This document shows, in pieces, positions 1 through 45,640 of a stretch of 64,000 bases of DNA. How positions within the stretch are numbered: position 1 is the stretch's first letter; every line of letters begins with the position of its first letter. The position numbers and the translations under genes were made by a program. Below the pieces are notes generated by a model. It made no database searches and was not told the origin of the DNA. It worked only from the letters and a program-made list of their open reading frames with translations. Origin of the DNA: a virus (Duplodnaviria; Heunggongvirae; Uroviricota; Caudoviricetes); IMG/VR virus record IMGVR_UViG_3300042535_000037, positions 36,031-100,030 of that record; one strand, given 5' to 3'.

Positions 1-698
1 TAGAATGCAGCTTTTTCACCAAGCTTATCCCCTCTCTTGATACTCAAAAGCTTATCATATGTAATTGTAAGTATGTCTGGTGCGTACACTTTTCCACTTG
101 TCATACTCTTGTTTTTCTCTTCCATCATTGTTTTGATGTAGCAATTTTCACAAGTGGAAAATGGTAGAATTGGTAAAAAGAATGTATCATATGCAGGAAT
201 TTCACATTCCTTACAATTCTCACTGAGAATAAAAGGTAACTCCTTGAGTGCCTTATTTGATTCTACCTTAGCCTTAGCCTTACTGCAACCCAACTGGTTA
301 GATGGAATCTGTCTTACAATCTTACTATAGTCACCTGTAGAATCCTGATACAATGAAAGTGCTGTTTTAACCGTTGACCTAGCTATTTCATTAGTAGGCT
401 CCACCACCAATATTCTTTTATTCCTAATCATGGCAGAAATAATGGTATTCGTAGTACAACTGGCTCTTGTCGTTTTAACCATGTTGTAGTACATTTCGAT
501 ATTTTCAGTTGTAATATCAATTATCTTGATGCACTTTGTCAGTTGCTCAACATAAACATGATTCTTTCGTTTTTCATTTCTTTCATCAATCACAATTGAT
601 TCTAAATCGTTATAATGCGCAACCAATTTCTTAAAAATTCCTTCGTCTATGGGCTTTTCCTTTAATGTTTCCATAAATTCGTGAATTTTTGGATGCAT
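1..698 (-). CDS. hypothetical protein, N-terminal 232 aa (gene runs off window start); Cys-rich C..C motifs
   Basis: ATG at 698 on minus strand (MHPKIHEFMETLKEK...), open to position 1; not in ORF track because truncated. Confidence 0.5.
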   Translation of the reverse strand, partial: MHPKIHEFMETLKEKPIDEGIFKKLVAHYNDLESIVIDERNEKRKNHVYVEQLTKCIKIIDITTENIEMYYNMVKTTRASCTTNTIISAMIRNKRILVVEPTNEIARSTVKTALSLYQDSTGDYSKIVRQIPSNQLGCSKAKAKVESNKALKELPFILSENCKECEIPAYDTFFLPILPFSTCENCYIKTMMEEKNKSMTSGKVYAPDILTITYDKLLSIKRGDKLGEKAAF

Positions 699-776
699 AG
701 ACAAGCTATTATGCGATTATCTTATTTTAACCTTTTCAAGAAAACTTCATATATATGAAACACCTATTAGTGACCA

Positions 777-941
777 ATGACCAAACTAGATACTTTCATT
801 CTAGAAAATTGCATTAATGTTTGTGGTCTTTACCATTCTCAAGATGATGGTGTTTTGTGCTTGATAGCAGACCACATTGTTGACGAATCAATAATGGAAA
901 AATGTTCTAAACGTCAAGAAGTACTTAGGAGTATATTTTAA
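777..941 (+). CDS. small Cys-containing protein (54 aa)
   Basis: canonical promoter-leader-like sequence catatatatgaaacacctattagtgacc precedes ATG; TAATG overlap with next gene. Confidence 0.4.
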   Translation: MTKLDTFILENCINVCGLYHSQDDGVLCLIADHIVDESIMEKCSKRQEVLRSIF

Positions 942-1357
942 TGATTGAAGTAGATGGAGTTTTTTGGAACTCAAAAGAGGATTACAGGGCAATACCTACC
1001 AACGCCATGTGCAAGAAAAACGGAAACCTAATCATGGGTGCAGGTACAGCACTCCAAGCATCTCAGAGATGTCCAAAACTTGCTAAAAAATTAGGCGAAC
1101 ACGTCAGGATACATGGGAATATTCCAGCATTCATAGAAGAATACATGATAGTCACTTTTCCTTCAAAACAAAATTGGCAATACCCATCTGACATAGACCT
1201 CATAGAAAAATCAGCAAGATACCTTCAGATGGCTCTACCTGAAGACAAGACCTGTGCAATAACAAGAGTAGGATGTGGCAATGGTGCTCTCCATTGGGAT
1301 ACAGTAAAGGCTCGCATTGCTCCAATCCTAGATGACCGTTTCCGTGTATACAAGTGA
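941..1357 (+). CDS. macro domain-like protein (ADP-ribose binding/processing fold)
   Basis: motifs PTNAM..GNLIMGAGTAL and VGCGNGALHW resemble the macro domain N..GGGV and G.G.G loops; SD AGGAG before ATG. Confidence 0.5.
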   Translation: MIEVDGVFWNSKEDYRAIPTNAMCKKNGNLIMGAGTALQASQRCPKLAKKLGEHVRIHGNIPAFIEEYMIVTFPSKQNWQYPSDIDLIEKSARYLQMALPEDKTCAITRVGCGNGALHWDTVKARIAPILDDRFRVYK

Positions 1358-1361
1358 TACC

Positions 1362-2462
1362 ATGAAAATATGCATGATTGCCGATGCCACATCAATCCAC
1401 TCTTTGAGATGGGCTAACTATTTTGTTTCTCAGGGCGATGAGGTTCACATAATCACATATGAATCGCCAAGAAAAGAAGTTCCAAACATAATATTTCATG
1501 TAGTAAAATCCAGATTTGGAAATCTCTATCTTGACTTTATTCCCCGCCAATTGAAAATTTCATCAATAATAGATGAAATAAAACCAGATATATTACATGC
1601 TCATTTCATCTCTAAGTTCGGCTTTCATGCTGCATTCATCAAACACAAACCAAGAATTATGAGTGCTTGGGGTAGTGATATTCTTGTCCTTCCTAACACA
1701 TCAAAATTCATCAAATTTTTCACTAAGCTTTCTCTCAAGAAAGCAGATGTCATCTATGCTGCATCCCACAACCTTCATGACAAGATAATCTCAGAATACA
1801 ACATCCCAGAATACAAAGTCAAATATGTACCAATTGGAGTAGACATAGACCTATTCCATCCTGAAGAAAAGAAATCCGAAACAATAACAATTCTATCTAA
1901 CAGAAACCTCATGCCTGTATACAACATTGAAACTTTTATCAATTCAATTTCATATGTAGTATATCGCCATCCAGAAGTAAGATTCATCATTGCAGGAAGC
2001 GGGATTCTCGAAGATTCACTAAAAGAAAAAGTAATAACTAAAAAGCTATCAGAATACGTTACATTCGTAGGAAATATAGAAAATATAGACATGCCAAAAC
2101 TTCTTAATGAATGCGACATATATGTTTCAACTTCACTATCAGATGGAACTCCAATTTCCATGATGGAAGCTATGGCTTGTGCTAAACCATGCATAATTTC
2201 AAACGTGGGTGGTACTTCCGAATACATAGAAAATGGAGTCAATGGATTTCTATTTACTCCAAAAAATTATGTAGAGTTAGCAGAAAAAATCAAATACTTG
2301 ATAGAAAACCCATCCATTAGAAAAGAATTTGGAGAAAAAGCTCTCATTACTATTCGTGAAAATGGAGACTTCAACAAACTCATGAAAAACATGAGAAAAA
2401 ACTACCATGAAGCAGACCTTCCCCAAAAGCTCAAAGGAACTCAGCTTTATTCAACGATGTGA
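1362..2462 (+). CDS. GT-B fold glycosyltransferase, family GT4-like
   Basis: C-terminal E-X7-E motif region GTPISMMEAMACAKPCIISNVGGTSEYIENGVNGFL; ORF-track ORF 1332..2462, start moved to MKICMI after the upstream stop. Confidence 0.85.
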   Translation: MKICMIADATSIHSLRWANYFVSQGDEVHIITYESPRKEVPNIIFHVVKSRFGNLYLDFIPRQLKISSIIDEIKPDILHAHFISKFGFHAAFIKHKPRIMSAWGSDILVLPNTSKFIKFFTKLSLKKADVIYAASHNLHDKIISEYNIPEYKVKYVPIGVDIDLFHPEEKKSETITILSNRNLMPVYNIETFINSISYVVYRHPEVRFIIAGSGILEDSLKEKVITKKLSEYVTFVGNIENIDMPKLLNECDIYVSTSLSDGTPISMMEAMACAKPCIISNVGGTSEYIENGVNGFLFTPKNYVELAEKIKYLIENPSIRKEFGEKALITIRENGDFNKLMKNMRKNYHEADLPQKLKGTQLYSTM

Positions 2463-2466
2463 AAAA

Positions 2467-2775
2467 ATGCCAACAATACATGAAGCCGTAAAATGTAAAT
2501 TCATGACTCTTACTGAAAGCAAAAAAGTAGTATGTGGTCAAGCTGATAACCCAGAAGAATATTGTAATTATGAAATTTGCTCCCTTTGGGAACAAAAAGA
2601 AGAAGAAAAAGTAATAGACTCTACATGTACACGTCATCTCGTATGTCCTCACTGTGGATATGAAGACGATGACTCTGAACTAGACGATTCAAGTGAAGAA
2701 TATGAGTGTCCAGTATGTGAAAAAACATTTTCATATGAACGCGAATACTCTGTGACTTACACAAGTTGGAAATAA
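2467..2775 (+). CDS. zinc-ribbon protein
   Basis: CPHCG...CPVCE pairs; internal ATG of track ORF 2407..2775 after the GT stop. Confidence 0.5.
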   Translation: MPTIHEAVKCKFMTLTESKKVVCGQADNPEEYCNYEICSLWEQKEEEKVIDSTCTRHLVCPHCGYEDDDSELDDSSEEYECPVCEKTFSYEREYSVTYTSWK

Positions 2776-2812
2776 CCAACACCTTTTTATATATAAAATT
2801 ATATGTGATATC
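2776..2812 (+). promoter_or_regulatory. promoter-leader cassette (TATA-like TTTTTATATATAAAA, GTGATATC before ATG)
   Basis: member of the window-wide conserved motif. Confidence 0.55.
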
Positions 2813-4351
2813 ATGAAAAAATTAGCCTCATTGATTGAATCCATAATGAATACATCTTCAACTAAAGCAAAGGAAGACCTTCTCGTTAACTTCCTGACAG
2901 AAAATCCATCTCCTGAATATATCCGTTTTCTTGGAAGTGAAATACTTCCGAAGCCTCAACCCTTAAACATAGGGAAAGCTACGGTCTCCAAAGCAATAGA
3001 AAACATTTCAGGTGCAAACATGAAAGAGCTCGTAAAAGAACATGGCTCCGTTTCACTTGCTACTTTCTATGCTTTCCAGAAAAGAAACACTAAGCCATCA
3101 ATATTTGATGACCTTCTGGTTCTTCCTTCCAAAAAATCAATTCTTACTATCCTTGAAAATATATCAAAGAATCAAAAGAAAGATGCTCAAGGAGAATACC
3201 TTTTCTCGATATTCAATGGACAAGACCCTCTATCTGCAATGGCTCTATCCCACTTCATTCTTGAAGACCTTCCCGTAGGCTATAACGACAAAATTCTCAT
3301 AAAAGCGATAGCTAGAGTCAAGTCTGTTCCAGCAGACCAAATAGAACTTGCTTACTACTTTACAAATTCATTTACAAAGTTAATGTATCTCAACAGTGTT
3401 GAGATTTCCTCTCTCATTGAAAAAGGTGCAGTAGTAGGATTTCCTGTAAAGTGTATGCTTTGTGAAACTCTCGAAAGTACATCATATCCTTGTATAACTC
3501 AACGTAAACTTGATGGCAACCGCTTACAAATTCACATTATATCTCCATCAATTTTCAAGTTATACTCCCGTAAGCTTGAAGATGTAACGGCATCACATCC
3601 CGACCTAGAGGAAGCAATCTCCAATTTCTACCATGACAATGTAAGTTACATGCCATGTATCTTAGATGGAGAAGCGATAATAGGTGGCAAGTTTACTGAT
3701 GGAATGACCCGCTTCCGAAGAAAACATGACATTGAAGAATATGCAGAAAAATATCCTGTGACTCTAAACATATTCGATATTATTGTGTGCTCAGGAGCCT
3801 CAATTGATAAAATGCCTCTTAGTGGTAGGATTGAATACCTTTCTACCTTCAAATTTAACGAAAGAATTCAACTAGTACCTCACATCATAACTAACTCTGA
3901 AGTGGAAATGCAGGAGTATTTCTCAATATGTCTTGAGGAAGGTTATGAAGGCATTATCATCAAAGACATAGAATCTCAATACCTCTTCAATTCAAGAGGC
4001 TCTGAATGGCAGAAACTCAAGCCTAAGTACACATACGACCTCATCTGCTACGATGGAAACTATGGAACCAACAAAAACAAAGATGTAATGTCATCCATCA
4101 AGCTTAAATCCTCTGAAGGCTTAGAATTAGGTAACTGCGCAGGTATATCCGAAGAGTCGATGCAGGAAATCACCAAGAGAATTGTTTCAGGTCAACAATT
4201 CGTTGTTGAAGTGGAGTTCGAATCTCTACAGAAAGGTGACACCTCTTCGGGTTACTCTCTTCGCTTCCCTCGCTTCATACGCATCCGTGATGACAAACAG
4301 TTATCTGAAGCAAACTCTATGAAAGACATAACCAAATGCAAGAGGACTTAA
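2813..4351 (+). CDS. lig: ATP-dependent DNA ligase
   Basis: motif I KLDGNR, motif IV EGIIIKD, motif V WQKLKPKY; 512 aa. Confidence 0.85.
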   Translation: MKKLASLIESIMNTSSTKAKEDLLVNFLTENPSPEYIRFLGSEILPKPQPLNIGKATVSKAIENISGANMKELVKEHGSVSLATFYAFQKRNTKPSIFDDLLVLPSKKSILTILENISKNQKKDAQGEYLFSIFNGQDPLSAMALSHFILEDLPVGYNDKILIKAIARVKSVPADQIELAYYFTNSFTKLMYLNSVEISSLIEKGAVVGFPVKCMLCETLESTSYPCITQRKLDGNRLQIHIISPSIFKLYSRKLEDVTASHPDLEEAISNFYHDNVSYMPCILDGEAIIGGKFTDGMTRFRRKHDIEEYAEKYPVTLNIFDIIVCSGASIDKMPLSGRIEYLSTFKFNERIQLVPHIITNSEVEMQEYFSICLEEGYEGIIIKDIESQYLFNSRGSEWQKLKPKYTYDLICYDGNYGTNKNKDVMSSIKLKSSEGLELGNCAGISEESMQEITKRIVSGQQFVVEVEFESLQKGDTSSGYSLRFPRFIRIRDDKQLSEANSMKDITKCKRT

Positions 4352-4352
4352 T

Positions 4353-4685
4353 TTGATATCCAAAGAAATATCAGACACAGACATTTCCTTTTTGGAAGGC
4401 GAATACATGAATACACAGACTGAACAAAATGAAAAGGTCACTAAGACCGACATAATAGACTTCATCAAAGAAAACGGTAATGGTCTCATACTCAGGCTCG
4501 TAGAGACATATGAAGCTGATGAAAAACGTAAATTCTACATGTTTATAGGGAAGACAGTTCTATGTCTCATCATAGCAATTCTTATCTACTTACTTGGAAA
4601 AGCAGCAATAATAACACCCGACAACATAGTAGTACTTCTCGCTTTCATAATAGGAGCACTATTAGGTGGCTATAAAACATCCTAA
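4353..4685 (+). CDS. small membrane protein
   Basis: C-terminal TM helices; ATG 2 nt after ligase stop. Confidence 0.45.
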   Translation: MISKEISDTDISFLEGEYMNTQTEQNEKVTKTDIIDFIKENGNGLILRLVETYEADEKRKFYMFIGKTVLCLIIAILIYLLGKAAIITPDNIVVLLAFIIGALLGGYKTS

Positions 4686-5065
4686 ACAGCCAATACCCCT
4701 GCTTCTATTTTTCCATTTCTAATTTCATAGACAACTGTATCATAAGTTGTCAAATTCCATTTTTCAGAATTTTCTAATTTTCCATCCAAATATACATCTA
4801 TTTGATAAGAATTATCATAAAATATTGTACATGTTTTTGGAGCCTTCACAAACCCATTACTTCCAAGTATATACATTTCAGTTTCATTAATTCCTTTTAT
4901 GTCAACAATTACTTCATGTGTTTCATTATCATTGTTCCTAACCTCATAGAATGACGTTGGAGCACCAGCAAAAACCATGAAAATAATCATATACATCGCT
5001 GTTATAGTAATAATTGTTACTAAACCTACTATCAATTTTGCTTTTCTTTTCATCTCAAGTAACAT
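4682..5065 (-). CDS. secreted/membrane-anchored small protein
   Basis: N-terminal hydrophobic segment; convergent 4-nt overlap with 4353..4685. Confidence 0.45.
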   Translation of the reverse strand: MLLEMKRKAKLIVGLVTIITITAMYMIIFMVFAGAPTSFYEVRNNDNETHEVIVDIKGINETEMYILGSNGFVKAPKTCTIFYDNSYQIDVYLDGKLENSEKWNLTTYDTVVYEIRNGKIEAGVLAV

Positions 5066-5224
5066 ATAACAATCACTATAAGAGCTTTTCTCTATTAAAA
5101 TAGCGAAAAAATTAATACCTATGCCGTCTTTATTTAAACGTTGTGGTAAAAGCTTAAATACTACGCAGCCAATTTACATCATAGAAGTGTAAGACTTCAC
5201 TTGAACAAATATGAGGTAATTCAA

Positions 5225-5620
5225 ATGAGTGAGAAACAGACTAAGAGAACTTTCATTGTATATAACGCTGAAGAATTTGATAACTCCGGTAAACTTGTGC
5301 CACTGAGAGGCGACAAGGGAACAGTCCGTAAGGTAACTGGTCGCTACCCAATCAATGCCGCAAATAAGGTCGCTGCAATGGGTCTCTCAGACATCATAAT
5401 CAGACAGACTCGTATAAGAAACAAGGTCAGGAGATACAAGGGAAGTATTGAGGAAGTCACCCTTGAAGAGAAGAATATTCCTGTATGGGCTATGGGTGCT
5501 GCTACCCTCGATGGTAACGGAAACAAGGTCTATAAGGCAAAGAAGGGCGTTGCAGACTATGTAGGTCTCGTAAAACTTCCAAAAGGAACCCTTCTGGATG
5601 CAACCGAAGACGAAGAGTAA
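5225..5620 (+). CDS. MC1-family archaeal chromatin (architectural DNA-binding) protein homolog
   Basis: VTGRYPINAANKVAAMG / DIIIRQTRIRNKV / PVWAMG match the MC1 motifs FTGKQPRQAALKAANRG / DIIRLRERGTKKV / PAWMP; SD GAGGT before internal ATG (track 5201..5620). Confidence 0.6.
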   Translation: MSEKQTKRTFIVYNAEEFDNSGKLVPLRGDKGTVRKVTGRYPINAANKVAAMGLSDIIIRQTRIRNKVRRYKGSIEEVTLEEKNIPVWAMGAATLDGNGNKVYKAKKGVADYVGLVKLPKGTLLDATEDEE

Positions 5621-5753
5621 CTCTCTTCATCGGTTTTTCTCCAATTACATTAACTAACTTTCTAAAAACCTTTTTATATTTTCGAGTTGACATTAGGTTG
5701 TGCGGTCATTCATCGCTCACTTTGTCAACTCACTCATTCAGGACCGCACTGCC

Positions 5754-6101
5754 TCAACACTGTCTACTTCTAACAGGACAAAAGACTATTTCTTTCATCA
5801 TATACTTGCATTCACAAAAAGAGCATCCACATTTAAAATGTTGGCAAGTCAACTTACTTTCCTCTGAACAGCAAACGCTTTGCATATTCAAAATATCCTG
5901 AGCATATATTGGCTTTATACATCCAATTATCTCTTCAATATTTTCATTTATTCCATACACTAATACTAAAAATGTTTTCATGGACTTTTCAAAAGAAAGT
6001 CCAACAAGGCTCTGGACAAAATACGATGACCTCTTAAAATCATCATACATATTCCTGAACATCTCTTCTTTGAATGACACTTGTGCCATTTGTACCACCA
6101 T
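5754..6101 (-). CDS. Cys-rich zinc-binding protein
   Basis: C-terminal CC..C..C.C.C cluster; canonical promoter on minus strand (tttatatacaataaaacacatt..ATG). Confidence 0.5.
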   Translation of the reverse strand: MVVQMAQVSFKEEMFRNMYDDFKRSSYFVQSLVGLSFEKSMKTFLVLVYGINENIEEIIGCIKPIYAQDILNMQSVCCSEESKLTCQHFKCGCSFCECKYMMKEIVFCPVRSRQC

Positions 6102-6138
6102 TTATATTACAAATGTGTTTTATTGTATATAAATATTA

Positions 6139-6336
6139 TCAATAAACCATTTCAAATCTGTATCTCTTTTTTAGCAATTTTACGCGAGCTCCATTTACTA
6201 AACCCTTTCCTGTATACACTTTCCATTCGTTTTCTGAGACTTGTTCCAACGTTACATTCGAACCATAGAAGAATTTTACAATTGCTCTATGTATCTGCTC
6301 TAATGAGCCTGCACTTGCTATTAACTTTGTTTCCAT
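6139..6336 (-). CDS. hypothetical small protein
   Basis: ORF only. Confidence 0.3.
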   Translation of the reverse strand: METKLIASAGSLEQIHRAIVKFFYGSNVTLEQVSENEWKVYTGKGLVNGARVKLLKKRYRFEMVY

Positions 6337-6424
6337 GTGTAAATACTAATTCTAATGTTATTTGAACTTTCTCATTACTATTTTTCAGATAAACTATATA
6401 TACAAATACATCATTTCCGAATTC

Positions 6425-7117
6425 ATGACTGAATACGTGATTGGAGATATACATGGTCGATACAATGCATTGGAGCAGTGTCTTGAACTATCGCAATTCG
6501 ATGAAAAAAACGACACCCTCATTCTTCTTGGAGACATTGTTGATGGTGGTCGCCAAACATATGAAGTCATAGAACGCTTACTAACGTTGAATACAAAATT
6601 CGTACTAGGAAACCACGATAGCTGGTTCATCAACTACATTAAAAATTCTGTAGAGCTTCCTATATGGACCTCTCAAGGTGGAATCAACACTCTCTATTCA
6701 TATCAGAAAAATAACAAAGGGGTCATTCCTGATTCTCATAAAGAATTCCTTTTTAATCATCTACCCTACTACGAATGTTCAAATGGGAACCCAAATAAAA
6801 TTTCCTACATATTTGTACATGGTGGTTTTGACCCTCTCAAACCAATTCACGAACAACCTATAGAAAAACTTCTTTGGGATAGGAGCCTTCCAGAATTTGC
6901 AAAAAAACAGTTCATACCTAACTACAAAAAAGTCTTCATAGGTCACACCACAACTCAATATCTTAACTCAACAACCCCTGTAAAACTCAACAACCTTATA
7001 ATGATGGATACAGGTGCAGGGTGGAGTGGTCGCCTTTCCATCATGAACATTCGTACTGAAGAATATTGGCAATCCAAAAAGCAAAAACCTTCCCGCTCAA
7101 ATGGTGGATACTGGTAA
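6425..7117 (+). CDS. calcineurin-like metallophosphatase (lambda-phosphatase/ApaH-like)
   Basis: GDIHGRY, GDIVDGG, GNHD motifs; TATA-like box ~30 nt upstream. Confidence 0.8.
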   Translation: MTEYVIGDIHGRYNALEQCLELSQFDEKNDTLILLGDIVDGGRQTYEVIERLLTLNTKFVLGNHDSWFINYIKNSVELPIWTSQGGINTLYSYQKNNKGVIPDSHKEFLFNHLPYYECSNGNPNKISYIFVHGGFDPLKPIHEQPIEKLLWDRSLPEFAKKQFIPNYKKVFIGHTTTQYLNSTTPVKLNNLIMMDTGAGWSGRLSIMNIRTEEYWQSKKQKPSRSNGGYW

Positions 7118-7149
7118 TCTTTAAATATCAAGCCAACCTATTTTCTCAC

Positions 7150-7437
7150 ATGTCAACAAGAATAACTTCAAAAAACTGCGAAGAACAGGTAGCCCGCCTC
7201 GCTCGTATTATGGGTAGACCTGTTCATGCATACAACAGAATGCCGGATGGTAGCTACAGAGCCAACACAGGTGCTCTCAAACTTCATTCATATCAAGGAT
7301 ACTACAGAGTTGTAGAAATTACTGGTGAAGGTGGGGGAGAAAGTGACTTCTTTGGCTCAACTGGTCTGAAAGCAGGCGACTTCTACACAGCTATGAATTG
7401 GGTAATGGAAGCAATTCGTGTTAACAGGAAGGGATAA
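7150..7437 (+). CDS. hypothetical protein, tandem paralog A (GYYR..EGGGxSD..GLKxGDF motif)
   Basis: shares motif block with the next gene. Confidence 0.5.
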   Translation: MSTRITSKNCEEQVARLARIMGRPVHAYNRMPDGSYRANTGALKLHSYQGYYRVVEITGEGGGESDFFGSTGLKAGDFYTAMNWVMEAIRVNRKG

Positions 7438-7438
7438 A

Positions 7439-7693
7439 ATGGCAACGAGAACCTCACAGAAAGACGTAGACCGTATGATACAATACTTCAATGATTCAAT
7501 GGGAACCCCTCAACATGGCAAAGGCTCCTTCACTTATGACATTAACTCAAATGGCTACTACAGGCTCATGCTTCAGACGACTGAAGGTGGCGGTGTATCC
7601 GATGTTGGCGGTGGACTCAAGATAGGAGACTTCTGCTCCGCGCTCAACATGGCTATGAGTGCAAGGAGAGCCAAGGAAAGATACGGCTTTTAA
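7439..7693 (+). CDS. hypothetical protein, tandem paralog B
   Basis: SD AGGAAGGG then ATG 1 nt after upstream stop; NGYYRLMLQTTEGGGVSDVGGGLKIGDF. Confidence 0.5.
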   Translation: MATRTSQKDVDRMIQYFNDSMGTPQHGKGSFTYDINSNGYYRLMLQTTEGGGVSDVGGGLKIGDFCSALNMAMSARRAKERYGF

Positions 7694-7733
7694 ATTAGGT
7701 AAATAAAAAGCCTAATTTTTACAAATTTTTTTC
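7694..7733 (+). terminator. hairpin ttagg..cctaa followed by T-runs
   Basis: immediately after the 7693 stop. Confidence 0.4.
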
Positions 7734-8159
7734 AAAAAACCAACTCTTCTGATAACGATTTTTATTTACTATACAAACACTATTTTCAAAATTACATAAA
7801 TTAAAGTTTGGTAAAAAATAGTATAGAAAAATATCCAAATATATTTAACGCCTTTTTAGTACATTCAAATATAAATTTCTAAATAGCCATTATTTTCACT
7901 TTAGAGCCTATCTTAGATGTCAAGTTATAAGTTTAAGAATTCGATATCTATTTTCAGCCAAGACGTTCTCAGCTCGTTTTGGAGCCTCATAGAAGCCACT
8001 TCTGACTCAGACTTACACCTTTTCATACGAAAGTACAATTAATATTACAAACATATATTACACTACAATTGATTAAATTATCAAATAAATAATCATCAAA
8101 ATTCAATACAGGTACTTTCACAAACCCTTAAATACTAGAAACACGTTTCATCTATCAAG

Positions 8160-8402
8160 TTGATTATTATGGAAGACAAATTAAATCTTGTATCTGAAAT
8201 TTTGGAAAAGCAAATTGCTAGTAACCTAAAGAAACTTGACAAAGCAATGAAGGAGAACGTCTGGAAAGCCACCAGAGTAAACACTGAAGAGTTAATCCGT
8301 CAACTCATGGTCACTAAACAACTCATTGCTCATTACGAAAGTGGAGAAATGGAAGACGATATCGACTCTAACCCAGAGATTGCTTCCCTCTTGGAAGACT
8401 AA
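8160..8402 (+). CDS. small acidic protein
   Basis: ORF with SD-like GTTGATT leader. Confidence 0.45.
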   Translation: MIIMEDKLNLVSEILEKQIASNLKKLDKAMKENVWKATRVNTEELIRQLMVTKQLIAHYESGEMEDDIDSNPEIASLLED

Positions 8403-8443
8403 CCTTCCATCACCTTTTTATACATAAATAACCGTATATATAC

Positions 8444-9046: not shown

Positions 9047-9085
9047 CCTTTATATATACAAAACACCATTACTATATTGCTGGCA
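9047..9085 (+). promoter_or_regulatory. promoter cassette upstream of tRNA
   Basis: cctttatatatacaaaacaccattactatat. Confidence 0.45.
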
Positions 9086-12801: not shown

Positions 12802-15800
12802 ATGAACCTTAAAAGCCTACTGATATTCCTATTCGTATTTCTTTTAACCATCAACGTAGGTTCCGCAGCTACACCGCCAATTGTGTACGTTGCTACTGAC
12901 GGAACAGGCGACTACAACTGTGATGGAACTGCCGACCAAGTACAATTAAACGATGCGTTATTATTTGCCTATAATAACAGAGCATCTGGATACACTACAG
13001 TCTACCTAAGAAGTGGAACTTACTGGATAGACTCTCAGATATTTCTCACCAACAACATAATTCTTACAGGTGATTCTACAGCTAAAATTAAGCTTATAGA
13101 CGACTGTCCTTGGCAAAGAACGTACACAGGTGCATTGGCATATTCATCTTCTGGTACTCAAACCTTGCCTATGATAATGGCTCGTAGTGGTCATAATACA
13201 GGTTTCACTATCACTAACATCATTATTGATGGAAACTCTCAAGGAAACACAGATGTACCATTTGGTCAGGGATGGTATAACCTCTTAAACTTCTACCAGT
13301 GTACACATGTTTCACTGGACCATGTTACGTTACAGTATGGTAAATCAGACGGATTTAAATTTCAGTCAGGCTCATACGCTTCAATGACAAACTGTAATGT
13401 CAACAAAATAGGTCACGATGCAGGGTATTTCCTATACTCAAACTACATAACGTTTACAAATAATACTGTATTTACTCGTACAAACTCTGCATGTCGTATC
13501 AGTAGCGGTGCTCACATAGTTATTGCTCACAACCATATTTACTCAGGAACCATTACCACTGCCGATGGTGGCGGCTCTTCAACCGGACCCGGAATTGAAA
13601 TAGATTTAGATGGCTCTGAATACTGTTATGATTGTGAAATATATGACAACGTAATTCATGACCTTAGAGGTTCAGGCATATGGATGACATCATCTAATGC
13701 AGATGGTGGAAGAGATGTTCACATCTATAACAATATAATTTATAATGTTGGTAAATATACTTACTTTAATGGTTACTCTATGGGTGGAATAACGCTCTTC
13801 CAATTCAACAATTCAATCATAGAGAACAATGTTTTTAATGAAGCAGGAGTGGGAGCACTCATTTACGCTGAAGGAACTGATTCTCCTACAGGTGGAAGCA
13901 AGCTTTATCATACTACTTTCAGAAACAACATAGTCATTAACACAAATGACCAACTACCAACTACTTCAGGTGGTTCAACTTACATATATGCAGTTCCAAT
14001 AATGAATCATGATGGAACTTACAGTAGAATCCATGCTTACAACAATGACTTCTACAACAACTACAACAACCTTGTCTACAAATCACACGTAGCTACAGAC
14101 TCTAACAACCTAGCAGTGGACCCTCAATTCGTAGATGCAACAAATCATAACTACCATCTAAAATCAACTGCTGGTCACTATAACAACGGAAATTGGGTAA
14201 TAGACGCTGTATCTTCATCACTCATAGATGCAGGTCTCTCTACTTCAGACTATTCCGATGAACCTGAACCCAACGGTAATCGCATCAACATAGATGCATA
14301 TGGAAATACTGCTCAGGCATCTAAATCTCCAACTGAGACAACACCTACCCCAGACCCAGACCCCGTTAATCCTGAGCCTGAACCTGTAGTAGTAGAGATA
14401 CAAGACCCTGTAGACAACCGCTTGCGCTCTCTATCTCCAACAACAGTATACTCTTCATCTACATACATAGATGCAGGAAATATAGCTTCTACGAGCTCTA
14501 CGGTGCGTGACCTGATTTGGTACGACCTAACAAATTACAACGATTCAAGCCAAGTAACTAGTGCCGAACTCAAATTGTTCTGGTATTATCAAACATCACG
14601 TACTTCAGATACAATCATAGAAATCTATAGACCTGCTGCAACATGGAGTACATCAACTGCAACATGGAACAATGCTAACACATGGTATGATGCTAACGGA
14701 GTGCTTGGTGGTTCAACACCATACGATTCAATCACATTCCCATCAACACAATCTCCAACAAACAGTTACTACTCATTTGATGTAACTGACCTTGTACAAG
14801 CATATGCAGAAGGAACCTACACTAACACAGGTTTCCTCATCAAAACACGTACAGAAAACAATGACTACGTTGCTTTCTACTCTCTAGACAACGGAAACTC
14901 TTCAAGGGTTCCAGTATTAGACATAAGTAGCACAGCAGTAAATATTGAAGCGTACTCTCCTACATCAAATCCAACGAAAACAGTAGGACAGTCACAAATT
15001 TTTACTACTCAATTAACTGCTACAGGAGATGTAGAATGGTCAGTTGATGGTATAATTAAGGAATATGACCTTAATACTCAACATGCATCATACACCTTCA
15101 CACCAACTGCTGCAAGAACCTATACGATAAGAGCAGAGACACCAACTGCTTACAAGTCTTGGTCTCTCACAGCTACATCAAATTCAACATCTAACCCTGC
15201 ATCTAACGTGACTACCTCAGTCTCAGGTATAGCCTACGTTGCTACTACAGGCTCCGACACTACAGGTAATGGTTCAATTTCTCTACCATATGCCACAATC
15301 ACAAAAGCCCTAACAACAACTGCACCTACAATCATGGTTAAAGGTGGTAACTATAACCTAGCTACCCCAATAACCCGTAGTAATGTAATAATTAAGGGAT
15401 ATAACGGCAATGCAGTATTTGACCATTCCGATGATACAGGAACAGCCTTCACGGTTACAGGTAGAACAAACATTACTCTACAGAATCTCATAATTCGTAA
15501 CTATGAATATGGTGTCTATGGAACAACTTCACTAACAAACTTGATAGTAGAGAACTGTTCAATCACAAATAATGCTCAGGACTCAATCTGGCTCGACCAG
15601 ATAAACGCCAACGGAATATACCTATATAACTCTACATTTGCAGACAATGAATATCACGGTGTCCATCTATCTAACCAAGAAGTAGGAAAACTAATCCAAA
15701 ATGTAGTCATAGAAAACAATGATTTCTATGATTGTCCAAGTAATCTATTGGACTTCCGTTCCAACGTTACGGATGTTACTTGCTCTGAAAATTATTACTA

Positions 15801-16824
15801 CTTCAACTCAGATGAAATCCAGCAGGTAGGAGTATATATCCACAATAACAACTTGGAGACATTTAGTTTCACTAATGAAGAATTCTATAACTGTGCTAGA
15901 CCTATGGAAATACTCAACGGTCAATCAGTTACAGTTACAAGTTCTCACTGGAACAATATTCACGATGCAACTGCACCACCAGTCTACGTCAATGGAGTTG
16001 AATTCCCTGTTACAGCTTCAGGTAGAGCAATTCTCTTCGGTGGTAACTCTCCAACTAACGAAGGAACTACATATACAGGATACAACAATGTATTCACTGA
16101 TATAGAGCAAACTCTATTTCCAACATACTCTGAAGCAGTAGGAACACCAGTTACAGTGCGTGAATATAACGCTACACTATCAAATGTATCTAAAATATTC
16201 TCTACTTCATCCTGCATAGAAAATATTGCAATACAAACATACCATAATTCACCAGTTAAAACCTTTGAATTTACAAATGCAAATGCTTTGACTTGGAAAT
16301 GGTATGTTAACAATACTTTGGTAGAAACAGACACTAATACGTACTTCCCATCACGTATTCAGAGCGGAATGACAACTGGAACCAATGTCTCAGCAATATG
16401 CACAGACAACGGTGATACACTCCGCATGACTTGGATTAGAGGAAATGGAACAGAAGTTAACGGTGTAATCTACACTAGATACCCGTATACAAGTTCTCCA
16501 AAGCAACTGAAGGGCAATGATGTTTCATTCTCTCTTACTCTCAATGGAAATGCAGACACAAAATGGTATGTAGATAATGTTCTTGTGGAAACAGATTCTT
16601 CCTCAAGTCCAACTTACATATACAATGCCACTGTATCTGGAACACATGTAGTAAAAGCAGTGACATCAGAAGAGACATACACTTGGAATCTTAACGTAGA
16701 AAACCCACAGCAAAAGTTCTACGTAGGTGTAATCACAAGAATAGGTCAAGTGCTATCTTGGGATACAAGAAAACCAACATATGACGACCAAGTTGTAGAC
16801 GGGTTCACCATAATTACAAGGTGA
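12802..16824 (+). CDS. giant secreted right-handed beta-helix (pectin-lyase-fold) repeat protein, adhesin/receptor-binding-like
   Basis: signal peptide; repeated NxxxxN/beta-helix turns (NNTVFTRTN, IAHNHIYSG, DNVIHDLRGSGIWM, ITNNAQDSIWLD); Pro/Thr linker. Confidence 0.75.
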   Translation: MNLKSLLIFLFVFLLTINVGSAATPPIVYVATDGTGDYNCDGTADQVQLNDALLFAYNNRASGYTTVYLRSGTYWIDSQIFLTNNIILTGDSTAKIKLIDDCPWQRTYTGALAYSSSGTQTLPMIMARSGHNTGFTITNIIIDGNSQGNTDVPFGQGWYNLLNFYQCTHVSLDHVTLQYGKSDGFKFQSGSYASMTNCNVNKIGHDAGYFLYSNYITFTNNTVFTRTNSACRISSGAHIVIAHNHIYSGTITTADGGGSSTGPGIEIDLDGSEYCYDCEIYDNVIHDLRGSGIWMTSSNADGGRDVHIYNNIIYNVGKYTYFNGYSMGGITLFQFNNSIIENNVFNEAGVGALIYAEGTDSPTGGSKLYHTTFRNNIVINTNDQLPTTSGGSTYIYAVPIMNHDGTYSRIHAYNNDFYNNYNNLVYKSHVATDSNNLAVDPQFVDATNHNYHLKSTAGHYNNGNWVIDAVSSSLIDAGLSTSDYSDEPEPNGNRINIDAYGNTAQASKSPTETTPTPDPDPVNPEPEPVVVEIQDPVDNRLRSLSPTTVYSSSTYIDAGNIASTSSTVRDLIWYDLTNYNDSSQVTSAELKLFWYYQTSRTSDTIIEIYRPAATWSTSTATWNNANTWYDANGVLGGSTPYDSITFPSTQSPTNSYYSFDVTDLVQAYAEGTYTNTGFLIKTRTENNDYVAFYSLDNGNSSRVPVLDISSTAVNIEAYSPTSNPTKTVGQSQIFTTQLTATGDVEWSVDGIIKEYDLNTQHASYTFTPTAARTYTIRAETPTAYKSWSLTATSNSTSNPASNVTTSVSGIAYVATTGSDTTGNGSISLPYATITKALTTTAPTIMVKGGNYNLATPITRSNVIIKGYNGNAVFDHSDDTGTAFTVTGRTNITLQNLIIRNYEYGVYGTTSLTNLIVENCSITNNAQDSIWLDQINANGIYLYNSTFADNEYHGVHLSNQEVGKLIQNVVIENNDFYDCPSNLLDFRSNVTDVTCSENYYYFNSDEIQQVGVYIHNNNLETFSFTNEEFYNCARPMEILNGQSVTVTSSHWNNIHDATAPPVYVNGVEFPVTASGRAILFGGNSPTNEGTTYTGYNNVFTDIEQTLFPTYSEAVGTPVTVREYNATLSNVSKIFSTSSCIENIAIQTYHNSPVKTFEFTNANALTWKWYVNNTLVETDTNTYFPSRIQSGMTTGTNVSAICTDNGDTLRMTWIRGNGTEVNGVIYTRYPYTSSPKQLKGNDVSFSLTLNGNADTKWYVDNVLVETDSSSSPTYIYNATVSGTHVVKAVTSEETYTWNLNVENPQQKFYVGVITRIGQVLSWDTRKPTYDDQVVDGFTIITR

Positions 16825-18542: not shown

Positions 18543-19223
18543 ATGAGTAGGAAATACTTGAAAATAGATACCCTCTGGAAGAGAAGAGAAGGAAAGAAAG
18601 GAGCAGTAATTCCAAATGACTACTCCAATCCAGTTTTTCCAAACATAAAAATGTGGATTGCCACAGAAAAAATCAATGGAGAAAACATTCGTATTATGTA
18701 CGATGGCTCTACAAAGACAGTTTCATATGCTGGAAAAACTGATGATGCAGAAATATTTCCAGAGATAATGGATTATCTTCAGGAAAAATTCAGCATAGAG
18801 AAATTCAGAGCTCTTGATAATTTTGACGAAGATACCGACATAACAATTTTCGCTGAGGCTTGCCATAAAAGAATATTAGATTCATATGTATATTTAAAAT
18901 CAGACGAAGTTGCCAAGGTCATCATTTTTGATGTTAAAATAGGCAAGTGGTGGCTGGAACACAACAATGTAATTTCAATTGCAACACATTTTGTTGTTGA
19001 TAATGCACCAGTTCGCTACATAGGAACCATTGAAGAATTGATTAAATTTGTAGTTAAGGAGCAGCAAAGTGTACTTACATATCCTAAAGAAGTAACATTC
19101 GAAGGAATTGTTTGTACTCCACATCCAATGGTGCTCAATCGTGACGGAACTCCCGTTAAGTTCAAGCTAAAGGTTGAAGATTTCCGCAAGCTAAAAGCCA
19201 TAGGCGAAGAATACAAGGTGTAA
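18543..19223 (+). CDS. minimal RNA-ligase-like nucleotidyltransferase (Rnl2-like core)
   Basis: motif I KINGEN, motif III FAEACH, motif IV EGIVC, motif V KFKLK. Confidence 0.55.
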   Translation: MSRKYLKIDTLWKRREGKKGAVIPNDYSNPVFPNIKMWIATEKINGENIRIMYDGSTKTVSYAGKTDDAEIFPEIMDYLQEKFSIEKFRALDNFDEDTDITIFAEACHKRILDSYVYLKSDEVAKVIIFDVKIGKWWLEHNNVISIATHFVVDNAPVRYIGTIEELIKFVVKEQQSVLTYPKEVTFEGIVCTPHPMVLNRDGTPVKFKLKVEDFRKLKAIGEEYKV

Positions 19224-19225
19224 AA

Positions 19226-19771
19226 ATGGTAATCGGATTTACAGGAACTCATTGTACAGGAAAGAGTACTCTTGTTAGACAATTAACTAAAATTGGCTAC
19301 CGCGAAGTATCAAACTCAATTCGTGACTATATAGCTAAGTTCCCGCAATATCAGGAACAATTCTTCAAGGGAGATGAGGCTCTTCAGTTTCACTTCTTAC
19401 ATCAACATATAAACAGAACATGTGCTCCCCATTATCCTTCAGCTTCAGACCGCACCTCAATAGACTATCTTGCTTACTACATGCGTCTACCCGAACAAAA
19501 GTTCCCTGAAATGTATAAGGAGCTCGCTATGTCTGCTCTCATCAACTACGATGTAATTTTCTATACTCCAATAGAGTTTGAATTCATAGATGATAATCTA
19601 CGATTTAAAGACGATTCGCGTGTTCAGGTAGATGAAAACATCTGCTCAATAATTCGTGAGATAAAAAAGGATGATACATACGTAGACATAATACCAGTGA
19701 CAGGCTCCATTCAAGAACGAATGAACACAATTGCAGATACTCTTAGAGAAATGAGAATGGTCATTCACTGA
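19226..19771 (+). CDS. P-loop kinase (polynucleotide/nucleotide kinase-like)
   Basis: Walker A GFTGTHCTGKST; starts 2 nt after ligase-like gene. Confidence 0.55.
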   Translation: MVIGFTGTHCTGKSTLVRQLTKIGYREVSNSIRDYIAKFPQYQEQFFKGDEALQFHFLHQHINRTCAPHYPSASDRTSIDYLAYYMRLPEQKFPEMYKELAMSALINYDVIFYTPIEFEFIDDNLRFKDDSRVQVDENICSIIREIKKDDTYVDIIPVTGSIQERMNTIADTLREMRMVIH

Positions 19772-25282: not shown

Positions 25283-26053
25283 ATGTTAGAAATCCAGCCA
25301 ATTGTATCTATCAATGCTCAGACATTCTCTGAAGCATACATGAAGGTTCTATGGAACATTAAAGAAGTTGGCGTAGAACACAAACCAGATTACAACGTTT
25401 CAACAAAAAGAATTTATCTTGCACTCTTTGTAAAAGACGTAAACTCTGACCAGTTAAGTCCAATCTGTCCTCTTAAAGAGGAATCTCTCAAGCTCTACAA
25501 AGATGAGCTTAAAGAAGAGTATGCAGAATGGTATGTCTCCCTTCCAGATGATGACAAACGCAAGTTTGACTATTGCTACGCCAAGCAGCTCTACAAGTTT
25601 GGTACAGAAGACATGAATACTCTCAGGATGAACCTTCTCAGTCTTCGCGTAGGCTCCCGAAGACATGCAGCCGCTCTATGGGATAACCGTCTTCACATCG
25701 AAAAATATGAAGACCAGCCATGTTGGGTCTTCTACAAGTTGGAGCTCCTGAGCGAAACAGACCTTCTCGTCTACATTACATATCGTTCATGGGATGCCTT
25801 TGGTGGACTTCCATTTAACCTTCCTGCAATTACTCATGGAATCCAAGACACCATTAAGAAACTCAACCTACCCTACAACATAGTTGGTTTCTTTGCAAAT
25901 GGCTACGATACTCACATATATGAAACTGACCAGAAGCAGGCATTTGATGGTCTCAAGAACTACTCCCCATGTTCAAAATGTGGAGAACCAACCCTTAAAT
26001 CACAAATGACCTTTAATTCAAAGGGTCTTTGTTGTAAAAGCTGCCTGAAGTGA
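25283..26053 (+). CDS. divergent thymidylate synthase (ThyA) family enzyme with C-terminal zinc ribbon; TS or pyrimidine hydroxymethylase
   Basis: SRRHAAALWD, PCWVFYKLEL (catalytic Cys), YITYRSWDAFGGLPFNLP (RS..D...N), GYDTHIY (H,Y) match ThyA cores; N-terminal third diverged; CSKCG...CCKSC tail. Confidence 0.7.
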   Translation: MLEIQPIVSINAQTFSEAYMKVLWNIKEVGVEHKPDYNVSTKRIYLALFVKDVNSDQLSPICPLKEESLKLYKDELKEEYAEWYVSLPDDDKRKFDYCYAKQLYKFGTEDMNTLRMNLLSLRVGSRRHAAALWDNRLHIEKYEDQPCWVFYKLELLSETDLLVYITYRSWDAFGGLPFNLPAITHGIQDTIKKLNLPYNIVGFFANGYDTHIYETDQKQAFDGLKNYSPCSKCGEPTLKSQMTFNSKGLCCKSCLK

Positions 26054-31340: not shown

Positions 31341-32663
31341 ATGTTAGACACAATAATGAATCTAGCTTTAGGCTTGTTACCAAGCTTCGTACAGATGTTG
31401 CTTATAATAATTCTTATCATCTTAATTGGTGCTAATTTCTACGTAATTGTGGATGTATCTGAAGCACATGTAGTAGTCACACCAAAAGGGAAAATGATTA
31501 TATCTTCAGACCCCAATATTTCTAGTAAAAATTGGTATATAAGGATACCAAAAAGAATACCTTTTATTGGGCGTTCGGTAAGGATTATAGATGTTTCTGT
31601 ACATGAAACAATCATTGAACAGGAAACATATGAAAAAGAGCAAGCGCGTTACCTCGTTAAGTCTTCTACAAAATACAGAGTAGTAGATGTAGCAGTAGCA
31701 GCAGAGACCTTCCGTACCCCAAAAGAACTCGAAGCTATGCTTTTTGAAATTATCCAATCTGCTGTTCGTGCAGTTACAGTAAAGTACGAAATTACTACAG
31801 CCAGAGCGGAAAAAAGTAAAATAGAATCTGATATTTGTGCTGAAATGTCCGATGATTTCAAAAAGTACGGTCTAGAAATCTACAACTTTAACTTAGTAGA
31901 CTTCAAAGATACACCACAAAGTAAAGCCGTGTCTTCAATATCAGAGAGGCGTGAAGCACAAATCACATCAGACACAGCTATTGAGGTTGCAGGTCGCCTA
32001 CAAGCTTCCAGAGTTAAGCAAGCTGAAGCAGACCAAACGGCTTCTCTACGTGAAACTGAAGCAAATCAAATCAAAGAACAGCGTGTCCAAGAGTCTGAAA
32101 TGTACATACAAAAGAAGAGAGCCGAATCAGAAAAGGCTAGACTAGAAGTAGTACAGGTTCAAACTATAATGCAGCAAAATATAGACAAGGAAAAAGCTAT
32201 AATTCTTGCTGAACAAGAAAAGGTTATCGCTGAAATCAATAAAGATAAACTTAGAGAAGAGGGTGCAGGTCAACGCCTTAAACTTGAAGAAATCGCAAAA
32301 GGTGAAGCTGCTGCAATCCGTGAAAACTTAGTAGCAGAAGCAGAAGGTAAACAAAGACTTCAGGAAGCTCTCTCTAAGTTCACACCAGAAGCAATCAACG
32401 CAATGGTAGCACCACAAGTCGTTGAAGCCTATAAACTCATTGGAGTAGCTTCTGCTGAAGCCCTGAAGACCGCAGACTTCCGTGTATTTGCTGGTAGTGG
32501 TGGAGAATCTGGATTTGACATTGGAAAAGTAATCTCAGCAACTATGGTTTCAAATGAAGAAACCGCAGGTGCTATTCTCAATAGAATCTCAAAACCACAT
32601 GACCTTGGCATTGGTTCAGTTAAAGTTGATAAACAAACCTTAGCTGAAAAATTGGAAGGGTAA
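31341..32663 (+). CDS. SPFH/band-7 (flotillin/stomatin-like) membrane protein with long coiled coil
   Basis: N-terminal TM, SPFH-like core, Ala/Glu/Gln-rich coiled coil. Confidence 0.6.
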   Translation: MLDTIMNLALGLLPSFVQMLLIIILIILIGANFYVIVDVSEAHVVVTPKGKMIISSDPNISSKNWYIRIPKRIPFIGRSVRIIDVSVHETIIEQETYEKEQARYLVKSSTKYRVVDVAVAAETFRTPKELEAMLFEIIQSAVRAVTVKYEITTARAEKSKIESDICAEMSDDFKKYGLEIYNFNLVDFKDTPQSKAVSSISERREAQITSDTAIEVAGRLQASRVKQAEADQTASLRETEANQIKEQRVQESEMYIQKKRAESEKARLEVVQVQTIMQQNIDKEKAIILAEQEKVIAEINKDKLREEGAGQRLKLEEIAKGEAAAIRENLVAEAEGKQRLQEALSKFTPEAINAMVAPQVVEAYKLIGVASAEALKTADFRVFAGSGGESGFDIGKVISATMVSNEETAGAILNRISKPHDLGIGSVKVDKQTLAEKLEG

Positions 32664-45315: not shown

Positions 45316-45640
45316 ATTGACTAAACTCTCCCGCAACTTAATTACACGTTTTGACAACATGAGAAACGTTCGTATTGCCATAAATCACAACTTTATTCAA
45401 TGTGAAGAAACAACAGAAGGCTTCTCAATCTTTGCAGGTGAACGTGAATCTTACGTACAACTCTCTTTTAATAAGCGTTGGGAACCCACATTTTATAACA
45501 TAATAGGTGTTCCACTACCCATCGCTAAGTACTGCTATGCCACATCTCCAAATTTCCAGCAATACTTAGAGAAAATCGAAGAGTACGTTCTCGAAAAATA
45601 CAACATAATAAAATCAGATGCACAAACCCTATTAAAATGA
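45308..45640 (+). CDS. hypothetical protein
   Basis: ORF. Confidence 0.45.
   Translation: MTKLTKLSRNLITRFDNMRNVRIAINHNFIQCEETTEGFSIFAGERESYVQLSFNKRWEPTFYNIIGVPLPIAKYCYATSPNFQQYLEKIEEYVLEKYNIIKSDAQTLLK

Follow-up and report, generated by a model that had tools for sequence, protein, structure and literature searches.

The window analyzed here is a 64,000-nucleotide (nt) stretch of the virus record IMGVR_UViG_3300042535_000037 (positions 36,031–100,030 of that record), and the locus of interest lies at its positions 777–4351, where a gene for a small macrodomain protein sits in a compact row with genes for a glycosyltransferase and a DNA ligase. A preliminary description of this DNA had reported a row of five genes linked by a TAATG junction and short spacers, and the list of open reading frames (ORFs) bears this out: five co-directional, back-to-back ORFs lie on the plus strand, with a coding density of 98.7% and spacers of −1, 4, 4 and 37 nt in order, the first being a 1-nt stop/start overlap (TAATG, at about 938–943) between the end of the first ORF and the start of the macrodomain gene. 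The macrodomain and ligase proteins were located on a 183,084-bp JGI contig, and the first 8,428 bases of the window (1–8428) are 100% identical in a Logan assembly contig of SRA run SRR35175267, which may be the same sample as JGI's.

Gene content of the locus

The first ORF (777–941) encodes a 54-residue protein with cysteines at C12, C16, C28 and C43; it has no match in Pfam, PHROG, NCBIfam or PADLOC, and the evidence for it as a gene consists of its position, a gene call on a second contig (L001) and a TATA-like box upstream. It is followed by a stand-alone macrodomain of 138 residues (941–1357), identified from the Protein Data Bank (PDB), NCBIfam, PADLOC and a structure model, by a GT4-family glycosyltransferase of the GT-B type (1362–2462, 366 residues), by an acidic protein of 102 residues with a C-terminal zinc ribbon (2467–2775) and by an ATP-dependent DNA ligase of the archaeal Lig1 type (2813–4351, 512 residues). 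The labels that the preliminary description had given to the four neighbors of the macrodomain hold, given the four cysteines of the first product, a Pfam Glycos_transf_1 match to the GT4 at 2.5e-37, the cysteine ribbon of the fourth product and a Pfam match to the ligase at 1.2e-34.

Two of the starts differ from those of the longest ORFs. The true start of the GT4 gene is ATG 1362 rather than 1332, because its residue 1 (MKICMIAD) aligns with residue 1 of the host orthologue described below, and the likely start of the zinc-ribbon gene is ATG 2467 rather than 2407, since the independent gene call on L001 agrees with it. The ribbon itself has the pattern C60-x2-C63-x17-C81-x2-C84. The protein matches phrog_6504 at 3.3e-8, its PHROG matches are exclusively to families without an assigned function, its zinc-ribbon matches in Pfam and NCBIfam are weak and below threshold, and a single-sequence AlphaFold2 model was unusable, with a predicted local distance difference test (pLDDT) score of 49.3.

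Overlaps of 4 nt or spacers of 0–4 nt are the norm across the whole window (for example at 45637/45640, 52483/52486, 60368/60371 and 29204/29205), so spacing alone is weak evidence for shared function, and in this genome close packing does not imply that genes are functionally coupled.

The macrodomain protein

The Pfam Macro model does not match the 941–1357 product at E ≤ 0.1, and its fold therefore had to be established from the PDB, NCBIfam, PADLOC and a structure model. The best phmmer matches in the PDB are the DarG proteins of T. aquaticus (5m31, 7.6e-8) and M. tuberculosis (5m3i, 7.4e-6), followed by a Thermosipho DarTG and then, weakly, by TARG1 (E about 0.5). The sole NCBIfam match is antitoxin_DarG (4.4e-13), in its macro part (positions 25–137 of the 338-position model), and the sole PADLOC match is DarG (3.7e-14). 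An AlphaFold2 model built from five input sequences had a pLDDT of 91.8 and a predicted template modeling (pTM) score of 0.85. When it was compared with the PDB by Foldseek, DarG structures were the best matches, followed by TARG1, Poa1p and coronavirus macrodomains; 68 PDB chains were found at E ≤ 1e-3, the 50 listed being macrodomain proteins or macro-scaffold designs, and the template modeling (TM) score was about 0.77 against both DarG and TARG1.

To the structural agreement is added the conservation of residues with known roles in DarG. In the T. aquaticus protein (TaqDarG), the K80A mutant is inactive and K80 is the catalytic lysine, corresponding to K84 of TARG1; the mutant of N22 is the second strongest, W83 is proposed to stack on thymine at a position where TARG1 has alanine, and residues 117–122 form a ligand-grasping loop (PMC5179494). 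In the phmmer alignment K76 of the window protein (FPSKQNW) aligns with K80 of TaqDarG (FPTKKHW), and the same alignment, together with one of 13 sequences that takes in orphan viral macrodomains, the PhiKZ protein AdfM and DarT-linked DarGs, equates N21 with N22, W79 with W83 and G113/G115 with the 117–122 loop. Residues N21, K76, W79, G33, G35, G111 and G115 are invariant among the 13 sequences, and two glycine-rich loops that bind the phosphates of ADP-ribose are present (M32-G-A-G35 and G111-C-G-N-G115), aligned with the DarG loops. Human TARG1/OARD1 (C6orf130) belongs to the same macrodomain class and carries its catalytic lysine at the same position, but its similarity is marginal and it has alanine where DarG and the window protein have tryptophan.

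On the modeled structure, the 941–1357 product is confidently a macro fold of the DarG/TARG1 type with its catalytic residues kept. The preliminary description had claimed this fold and had named profile searches and catalytic residues as a way of checking it; the model confidence, the DarG and TARG1 matches in Foldseek and the PDB matches confirm the fold, and the DarG profiles of NCBIfam and PADLOC agree, with K76, N21 and W79 kept and Pfam Macro silent. We predict from these comparisons that the protein is an ADP-ribosyl glycohydrolase, an orphan antitoxin-like enzyme of counter-defense, and the role against DarT-like DNA ADP-ribosylation that had been suggested for it is supported as the best reading of the DarG-type fold, profiles and residues.

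The family to which the protein belongs behaves as a stand-alone, horizontally mobile gene in many unrelated phages. A profile of the five closest sequences matched 9,682 cluster representatives (E ≤ 1e-3), and among the best 150 of these most are 140–160 residues long and matched over their full length; the family consists mostly of stand-alone proteins of about 145–155 residues. Homologues occur in 158 IMG/VR stretches and in 88 GenBank phage records, among them Moorella phage MTATph1, Bacillus phage SP-15, several ~70-kb Klebsiella/Salmonella phages and large (about 165-kb) Proteus/Shigella phages, where they are usually annotated as 'phosphatase' or 'ADP ribose binding protein'. An annotation of the window protein as 'hypothetical' or 'phosphatase' can be corrected to DarG-type ADP-ribosyl glycohydrolase. 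The closest relatives, at 40–45% identity, include contigs with phage-like genes such as sigma-70 region genes, ThyX and amidoligases (L002–L004 from Logan, L005–L084 from IMG/VR), and because sigma-70-bearing phage-like contigs are among them, the comparison suggests flow of the macrodomain gene between bacterial phages and archaeal viruses. The virus Rctr197k, which has a macrodomain homologue and a similar genome size, was considered as a relative of the element and set aside, its local gene order being unrelated.

Among cellular genomes the picture is different in its linkage to DarT. At 71 of the 80 loci that gave the best cellular matches in contigs representing one genome per species, the macrodomain forms the N terminus of a ~350-residue protein whose gene immediately follows that of a DarT2 homologue (phmmer 1e-5 to 1e-39), and these 71 loci are genuine DarTG2 systems because of that upstream DarT2 homologue. 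When the six-frame ORFs of the 64-kb window and of L001 were searched with a DarT hidden Markov model (HMM) of 72 sequences, in contrast, no match was found at E ≤ 10, and 83 further macrodomain loci of viral or phage-like origin gave none either, in flanks of about 5–10 kb on each side where the contig allows. The window protein is also without the C-terminal DarT-binding domain, with 138 residues as against about 350 in a DarTG2 antitoxin. Judged by sequence, it thus has the fold and the catalytic residues of the DarG class and lacks the adjacent DarT and the C-terminal domain of DarTG2, and we regard it as an orphan antitoxin-like enzyme because there is neither a DarT nearby nor a domain to bind one.

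Of the characterized systems, DarTG2 DarG (T. aquaticus and M. tuberculosis; 5M31, 5M3E and 5M3I) is the best match in sequence, profile and fold, with counterparts in the window protein for K80, N22, W83 and the 117–122 loop, but it is a protein of about 350 residues with a DarT-binding domain, beside a DarT gene in a cellular defense locus, whereas the protein described here is a short one on a virus-like element. A functional parallel is provided by AdfM, comprising gp104 of PhiKZ and its chimallivirus homologues, which strips DarT2-made ADP-ribose from DNA and rescues DarT2 toxicity (Cell Rep 2026, PMC13309987). Both are stand-alone viral macrodomains of the DarG2 type without a DarT-binding domain; N23 of gp104, the mutation of which lowers AdfM activity, corresponds to N21 here, and the DarG-catalytic lysine and the glycine loops are common to both. 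The two differ in that AdfM acts in a Pseudomonas host and in the context of a phage nucleus, as opposed to the archaeal Methanosarcinaceae-type host proposed below, and in that AdfM is distant in sequence (26% identity to gp104, E 2e-9), is without the 7-residue insertion found here after N21 and has an activity that in our protein is predicted. Orphan DarG-type macrodomains are experimentally established agents of phage counter-defense; the kind is known, and what makes the present member notable is its archaeal setting.

Glycosyltransferase, ligase and putative transcription signals

Both halves of the GT-B fold were recognized in the glycosyltransferase, with Glyco_trans_4_2 (7.3e-25) matching N-terminally and Glycos_transf_1 C-terminally. 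After itself, its best matches are chromosomal proteins of Methanomethylovorans (54–57% identity), Methanococcoides burtonii (52%) and Methanolobus (50%), and the viral protein is collinear with the host orthologue from residue 1 to the end; a single-sequence scan of IMG/VR found no close GT4 relative. By these comparisons the viral gene is a fairly recent acquisition from a host, and this origin points to methylotrophic Methanosarcinaceae as the host of the element. In three contexts (two contigs of Methanomethylovorans and one of M. burtonii) the orthologue is on the strand opposite to AglB/STT3, at a distance of one or two genes, and it is followed by genes for an epimerase, a nucleotidyltransferase and NeuB, or by GT2 genes. 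Since the orthologues adjoin AglB (STT3) and nucleotide-sugar genes, the viral enzyme is most plausibly a host-derived N-glycosylation transferase of the aglB-linked cluster type rather than a DNA enzyme. To our knowledge none of the matching Methanosarcinaceae orthologues has been characterized. The NCBIfam Agl16 model matches at 1e-16, well below its cut-off; archaeal Agl glycosyltransferases such as Agl16 are alike in being of the GT4 family, with the 50–57% identical host orthologues beside AglB/STT3, and the viral copy differs in being detached from an agl cluster.

The best PDB relatives of the glycosyltransferase are BshA, TarM and a PglA-type bacillosamine GalNAc-transferase, all of them GT4 enzymes and none a DNA glucosyltransferase. 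A role in glycosylating DNA, which was considered because the window also encodes a ThyA-like protein and a dCMP deaminase, was rejected on account of the agl-cluster orthology and the BshA/TarM/PglA-type relatives, and nothing ties the enzyme to DNA or ADP-ribose. The earlier proposal that it could glycosylate DNA or proteins therefore survives in its protein half, for which the orthologues beside AglB/STT3 speak, and finds no support in its DNA half, as none of the best PDB relatives is a DNA glucosyltransferase. The ThyA-like protein itself (25283–26053, plus strand) is very divergent (Pfam 1.8e-8); it keeps the catalytic cysteine (QPCW) and the asparagine of RSxD...LPFN, typical of dUMP-binding enzymes, which fits a synthase and a pyrimidine hydroxymethylase (an enzyme of DNA hypermodification) alike, and the dCMP deaminase elsewhere in the window is matched at 6.6e-23.

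The ligase has the DNA-binding, nucleotidyltransferase and OB domains (Pfam DNA_ligase_A_N, _M and _C), matches NCBIfam LigA_Halo at 6.5e-55 and has intact motifs I, III, IV, V and VI (K232-LDGNR, ILDGE, EGIIIK, WQKLK and RFPR). Its nearest relatives, ~30% identical, are cellular archaeal Lig1-type ligases from Archaeoglobales, Methanoperedens, Methanosarcinaceae and Methanomicrobiales; single-sequence scans of IMG/VR and JGI metagenomes found no close relative, and in the collections scanned with the ligase and the GT4 the element is an orphan. On L001, in the 9 kb upstream of the window, lie genes for a family-B DNA polymerase (PolB), a Rad3/XPD-like helicase, an RFC/Rad17-like AAA protein and a divergent product of 1,061 residues. 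Because polymerase, helicase and clamp-loader-like genes are nearby, the ligase is likely to be the replicative ligase of the element.

Putative transcription signals were found on both sides of the ligase gene and ahead of the first ORF. A consensus archaeal-type TATA box, TTTATATA, lies at 2786–2793 (plus strand), 27 nt before the ligase ATG, and is taken as the putative promoter P2. It is preceded at 2765–2788 (plus strand) by a terminator-like hairpin, GTTGG-AAATAA-CCAAC followed by five thymines (T5), which adjoins the zinc-ribbon stop in the 37-nt spacer, and a second terminator-like T5 tract, within the inverted repeat TTCC TTTTT GGAA, lies at 4389–4393 (plus strand), 38 nt past the ligase stop. 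Upstream of the first ORF, a TATA-like box at 748–755 (plus strand), CATATATA followed by TGAAACACCTATTAGT, lies 29 nt before ATG 777 and is the putative promoter P1, its architecture resembling that of the TTTATATA sites when compared by eye; this box is a variant of the consensus, with an AAACACC...ATTA motif downstream as at other sites.

The consensus is enriched in the window. TTTATATA occurs 14 times on the plus strand against 5.6 expected, and half of these sites (7/14) precede, by 27–35 nt, the ATG of an ORF that encodes 50 residues or more, whereas sigma-70-like sites are not enriched in the window (20, compared with 19.7 in shuffled sequence). Examples are found on the plus strand at 2786, 9049, 12770, 23279, 25248, 30452, 55008, 56696 and 62913 and on the minus strand at 6133, 11469 and 31074. 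The box is often followed ~10–20 nt on by an AAACACC or ATTACT-like motif, and the copy at 9049 lies ~90 nt upstream of a tRNA-Asn gene. From its position the box looks like an archaeal-type promoter of the element, giving leaderless mRNAs or mRNAs with very short leaders. The box 27 nt ahead of the ligase gene and the T5 tracts that flank this gene make its separate transcription from the preceding genes probable, and the likeliest layout from these motifs is a four-gene unit (777–2775) followed by the separately promoted ligase. Beyond the ligase, a predicted membrane protein of 92 residues with two hydrophobic helices (4407–4685, plus strand; ORF and gene call, with no family match in Pfam, PHROG or PADLOC) is the last co-directional product before a convergent gene on the minus strand (4682–5065).

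Interpretation of the locus

On balance, and with moderate confidence, we read the locus not as one biochemical module but as two putative units that bring together a DarG/AdfM-like macrodomain, an N-glycan glycosyltransferase and a replicative ligase. The first unit, behind the promoter-like box at 748, would consist of the cysteine protein, the orphan macrodomain, the host-derived glycosyltransferase and the zinc-ribbon protein, and the second, behind the TATA box at 2786, of the Lig1-type ligase. Like DarG and AdfM, the macrodomain would bind ADP-ribose on a base of single-stranded DNA, K76 would hydrolyze the base–ribose bond with N21 and W79 positioning the substrate, and unmodified DNA would be restored so that the element could replicate despite a host defense based on an ADP-ribosyltransferase. 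We infer this substrate, the timing of the reaction and the host ADP-ribosyltransferase itself from fold, conservation, homology and gene context, as we do the transcription units from the positions of motifs. Because it has no DarT-binding C-terminal domain, the macrodomain would act only enzymatically. The glycosyltransferase would add a sugar in the pathway of dolichol-linked N-glycans, for glycosylation of virion proteins or remodeling of the host S-layer, and the ligase would join Okazaki fragments, working with the PolB, the Rad3-like helicase and the RFC/Rad17-like ATPase whose genes lie immediately upstream.

A number of observations weigh against this account. The best 80 cellular matches of the macrodomain are all bacterial, and our literature search found no report of DarTG in archaea or methanogens and no report of a DarT-like ADP-ribosyltransferase in Methanosarcinaceae hosts. 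The search for DarT in the element itself covered 64 kb of the 183-kb contig and the 9 kb upstream from L001. The subfamily has its 7-residue insertion after N21 relative to both DarG and AdfM. The substrate is not fixed by the fold, since macrodomains of the TARG1 type also act on protein Glu/Asp-ADP-ribose, on O-acetyl-ADP-ribose (as the names of PDB entries indicate) and on ADP-ribose at nucleic acid ends. The transcription units, finally, are read from sequence motifs alone, and T5 runs are found within genes as well.

That the macrodomain acts on something other than ADP-ribosylated DNA, reversing ADP-ribosylation of protein or RNA by a host defense or processing ADP-ribose-1''-phosphate or O-acetyl-ADP-ribose, possibly together with RNA-repair genes, is in our view rather unlikely. 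After DarG, the structure is matched best by TARG1 and Poa1p, PHROG 335 and many GenBank phage records carry the names 'phosphatase' or 'ADP ribose binding protein', the element encodes both a Pnkp-like kinase–phosphoesterase–Rnl1 fusion and an Rnl2-like ligase, and no host DarT has been demonstrated; yet the sequence profiles single out DarG rather than the MacroD or Poa1p families, the closest cellular relatives are overwhelmingly DarT2-linked, and the DarG-specific W83 has its counterpart in W79 where TARG1 has alanine. Repair of the T4 Pnkp/Rnl1 type, moreover, generates no ADP-ribose-1''-phosphate. We give a low probability to a second possibility, in which an ADP-ribosyltransferase encoded elsewhere on the 183 kb would modify DNA or proteins of the host or of competitors and the macrodomain is its antidote, which protects the element or regulates replication, its own or that of the host. 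No DarT-like gene was found in the window (64 kb) or in the 9 kb that precede it, none lies beside the 83 other viral copies, and the family behaves as a stand-alone mobile gene in many unrelated phages, all of which speak against it; in its favor, Borgs have among their core genes one for a DarG-like protein (best match 5M3E) with a proposed role in replication control (PMC11208441), and the element shares with the Borg core PolB, a Rad3-like helicase, a T4-like RNA ligase and Pnkp.

The preliminary description had also suggested a module for reversal of DNA damage or modification; in the integrated form of this model, the macrodomain would strip ADP-ribose, the glycosyltransferase modify DNA and the ligase seal it. 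In favor of it, the genes share one orientation and are joined by a TAATG overlap and spacers of 4 nt, the macrodomain is of the DNA-acting DarG type, and the divergent ThyA-like protein and the dCMP deaminase could in principle feed a modification of DNA bases. This cooperation was nevertheless not borne out, and we consider it very improbable. Hydrolysis of the DarG type restores the thymidine intact, with no nick left for a ligase to close (PMC5179494); the GT4 is a copied host gene, 54–57% identical to and collinear with genes of N-glycosylation clusters beside AglB/STT3, with BshA, TarM and PglA-type enzymes and no DNA glucosyltransferases as its PDB relatives; a TATA box of its own and T5 tracts on either side set the ligase apart; and the tight packing is universal in the window. 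Adjacency of a macrodomain to either partner is, in addition, essentially absent from the 83 other loci, where phmmer and HMM searches placed a GT4 near the macrodomain once (L050) and an ATP-dependent ligase once (L072), the latter as a weak match.

Returning to the DarG/AdfM-like account, an intact macrodomain in an element with archaeal promoters, an archaeal ligase and host genes hints at immunity by DNA ADP-ribosylation in methanogens. We put forward, tentatively and as a possibility that the present comparisons leave on the doubtful side, that Methanosarcinaceae may use a DarT-like defense of this kind, countered, as in Borgs, by an orphan DarG-type macrodomain whose gene moved between bacterial phages and archaeal viruses; if this is true, the arms race between DarT and anti-DarT extends across domains. 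The relevant Borg gene is subfam2258, a DarG-fold protein that is a core gene of Methanoperedens Borgs (Nat Commun 2024, PMC11208441). Compared by description only, the two are alike in being DarG-fold proteins without a sequence-based annotation on large, Methanosarcinales-related mobile elements that both carry PolB, a Rad3-like helicase and T4-like RNA-repair genes; Borgs differ in being far larger and in their pervasive tandem repeats, which are near-absent here. The window protein thus offers a concrete function to try for the DarG-like core gene of Borgs.

The element and its other genes

Taken together, the findings suggest that the DNA belongs to a large virus-like element (at least 183 kb) of methylotrophic Methanosarcinaceae. 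The archaeal setting is indicated by the spacing of the TATA boxes, the lack of a sigma-70 excess, a protein with disaggregatase domains and the Methanosarcinaceae origin of the GT4. A blastn search of positions 700–4700 against GenBank phages gave no match, and no viral hallmark structural genes, capsid or terminase were seen in the 64-kb window; the label 'virus' therefore rests on phage-like gene content. Besides the genes discussed, the window encodes a UvrD helicase, an HNH endonuclease and the tRNA-Asn. Nearly all of its genes are on the plus strand, and the GC skew is negative throughout. PolB, a Rad3-like helicase, a DarG-like protein, a T4-like RNA ligase and Pnkp are shared with the published core set of Borgs. 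An origin as a Borg was considered and is not favored, because despite the overlapping gene content the window is almost without the tandem repeats typical of Borgs, having four short arrays in 64 kb; some kinship with Borgs or mini-Borgs is conceivable.

The disaggregatase-domain protein (12802–16824, plus strand) has 1,340 residues and combines a right-handed beta-helix with disaggregatase-associated and disaggregatase-repeat domains and a CBM96 module. From these domains it is plausibly a receptor-binding or envelope-depolymerizing protein, and as such a host marker for envelopes of the Methanosarcinales type. Two sets of genes concern RNA repair, the second tentatively. On the minus strand, 34689–36860 encodes a 723-residue protein in which a P-loop kinase (AAA_33) and a calcineurin-like phosphoesterase are fused to an RNA ligase of the T4 Rnl1 type, a single-chain, Pnkp-plus-Rnl1-style enzyme of RNA (tRNA) repair that presumably counters host anticodon nucleases. 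On the plus strand, the gene for a protein of the Rnl2/RNA_ligase family (18543–19223; Pfam 2.2e-10, phrog_548 2.3e-17) is separated by 2 nt from that for an AAA_28 P-loop protein (19226–19771; 5e-14) behind it, and the two may form a second RNA-repair pair or an NAD-related pair.

Among the remaining genes, all on the plus strand, 6362–7117 encodes a NinI-like Ser/Thr phosphatase (phrog_246, 8.9e-54), and 31341–32663 an SPFH/flotillin-like protein (Band_7, 6.2e-16), which is unusual viral cargo. The adjacent small ORFs at 7066–7437 and 7418–7693, which fall into no known family, are paralogous, with 37% identity and a common T(G/T)EGGG-x-SD...GDF motif.

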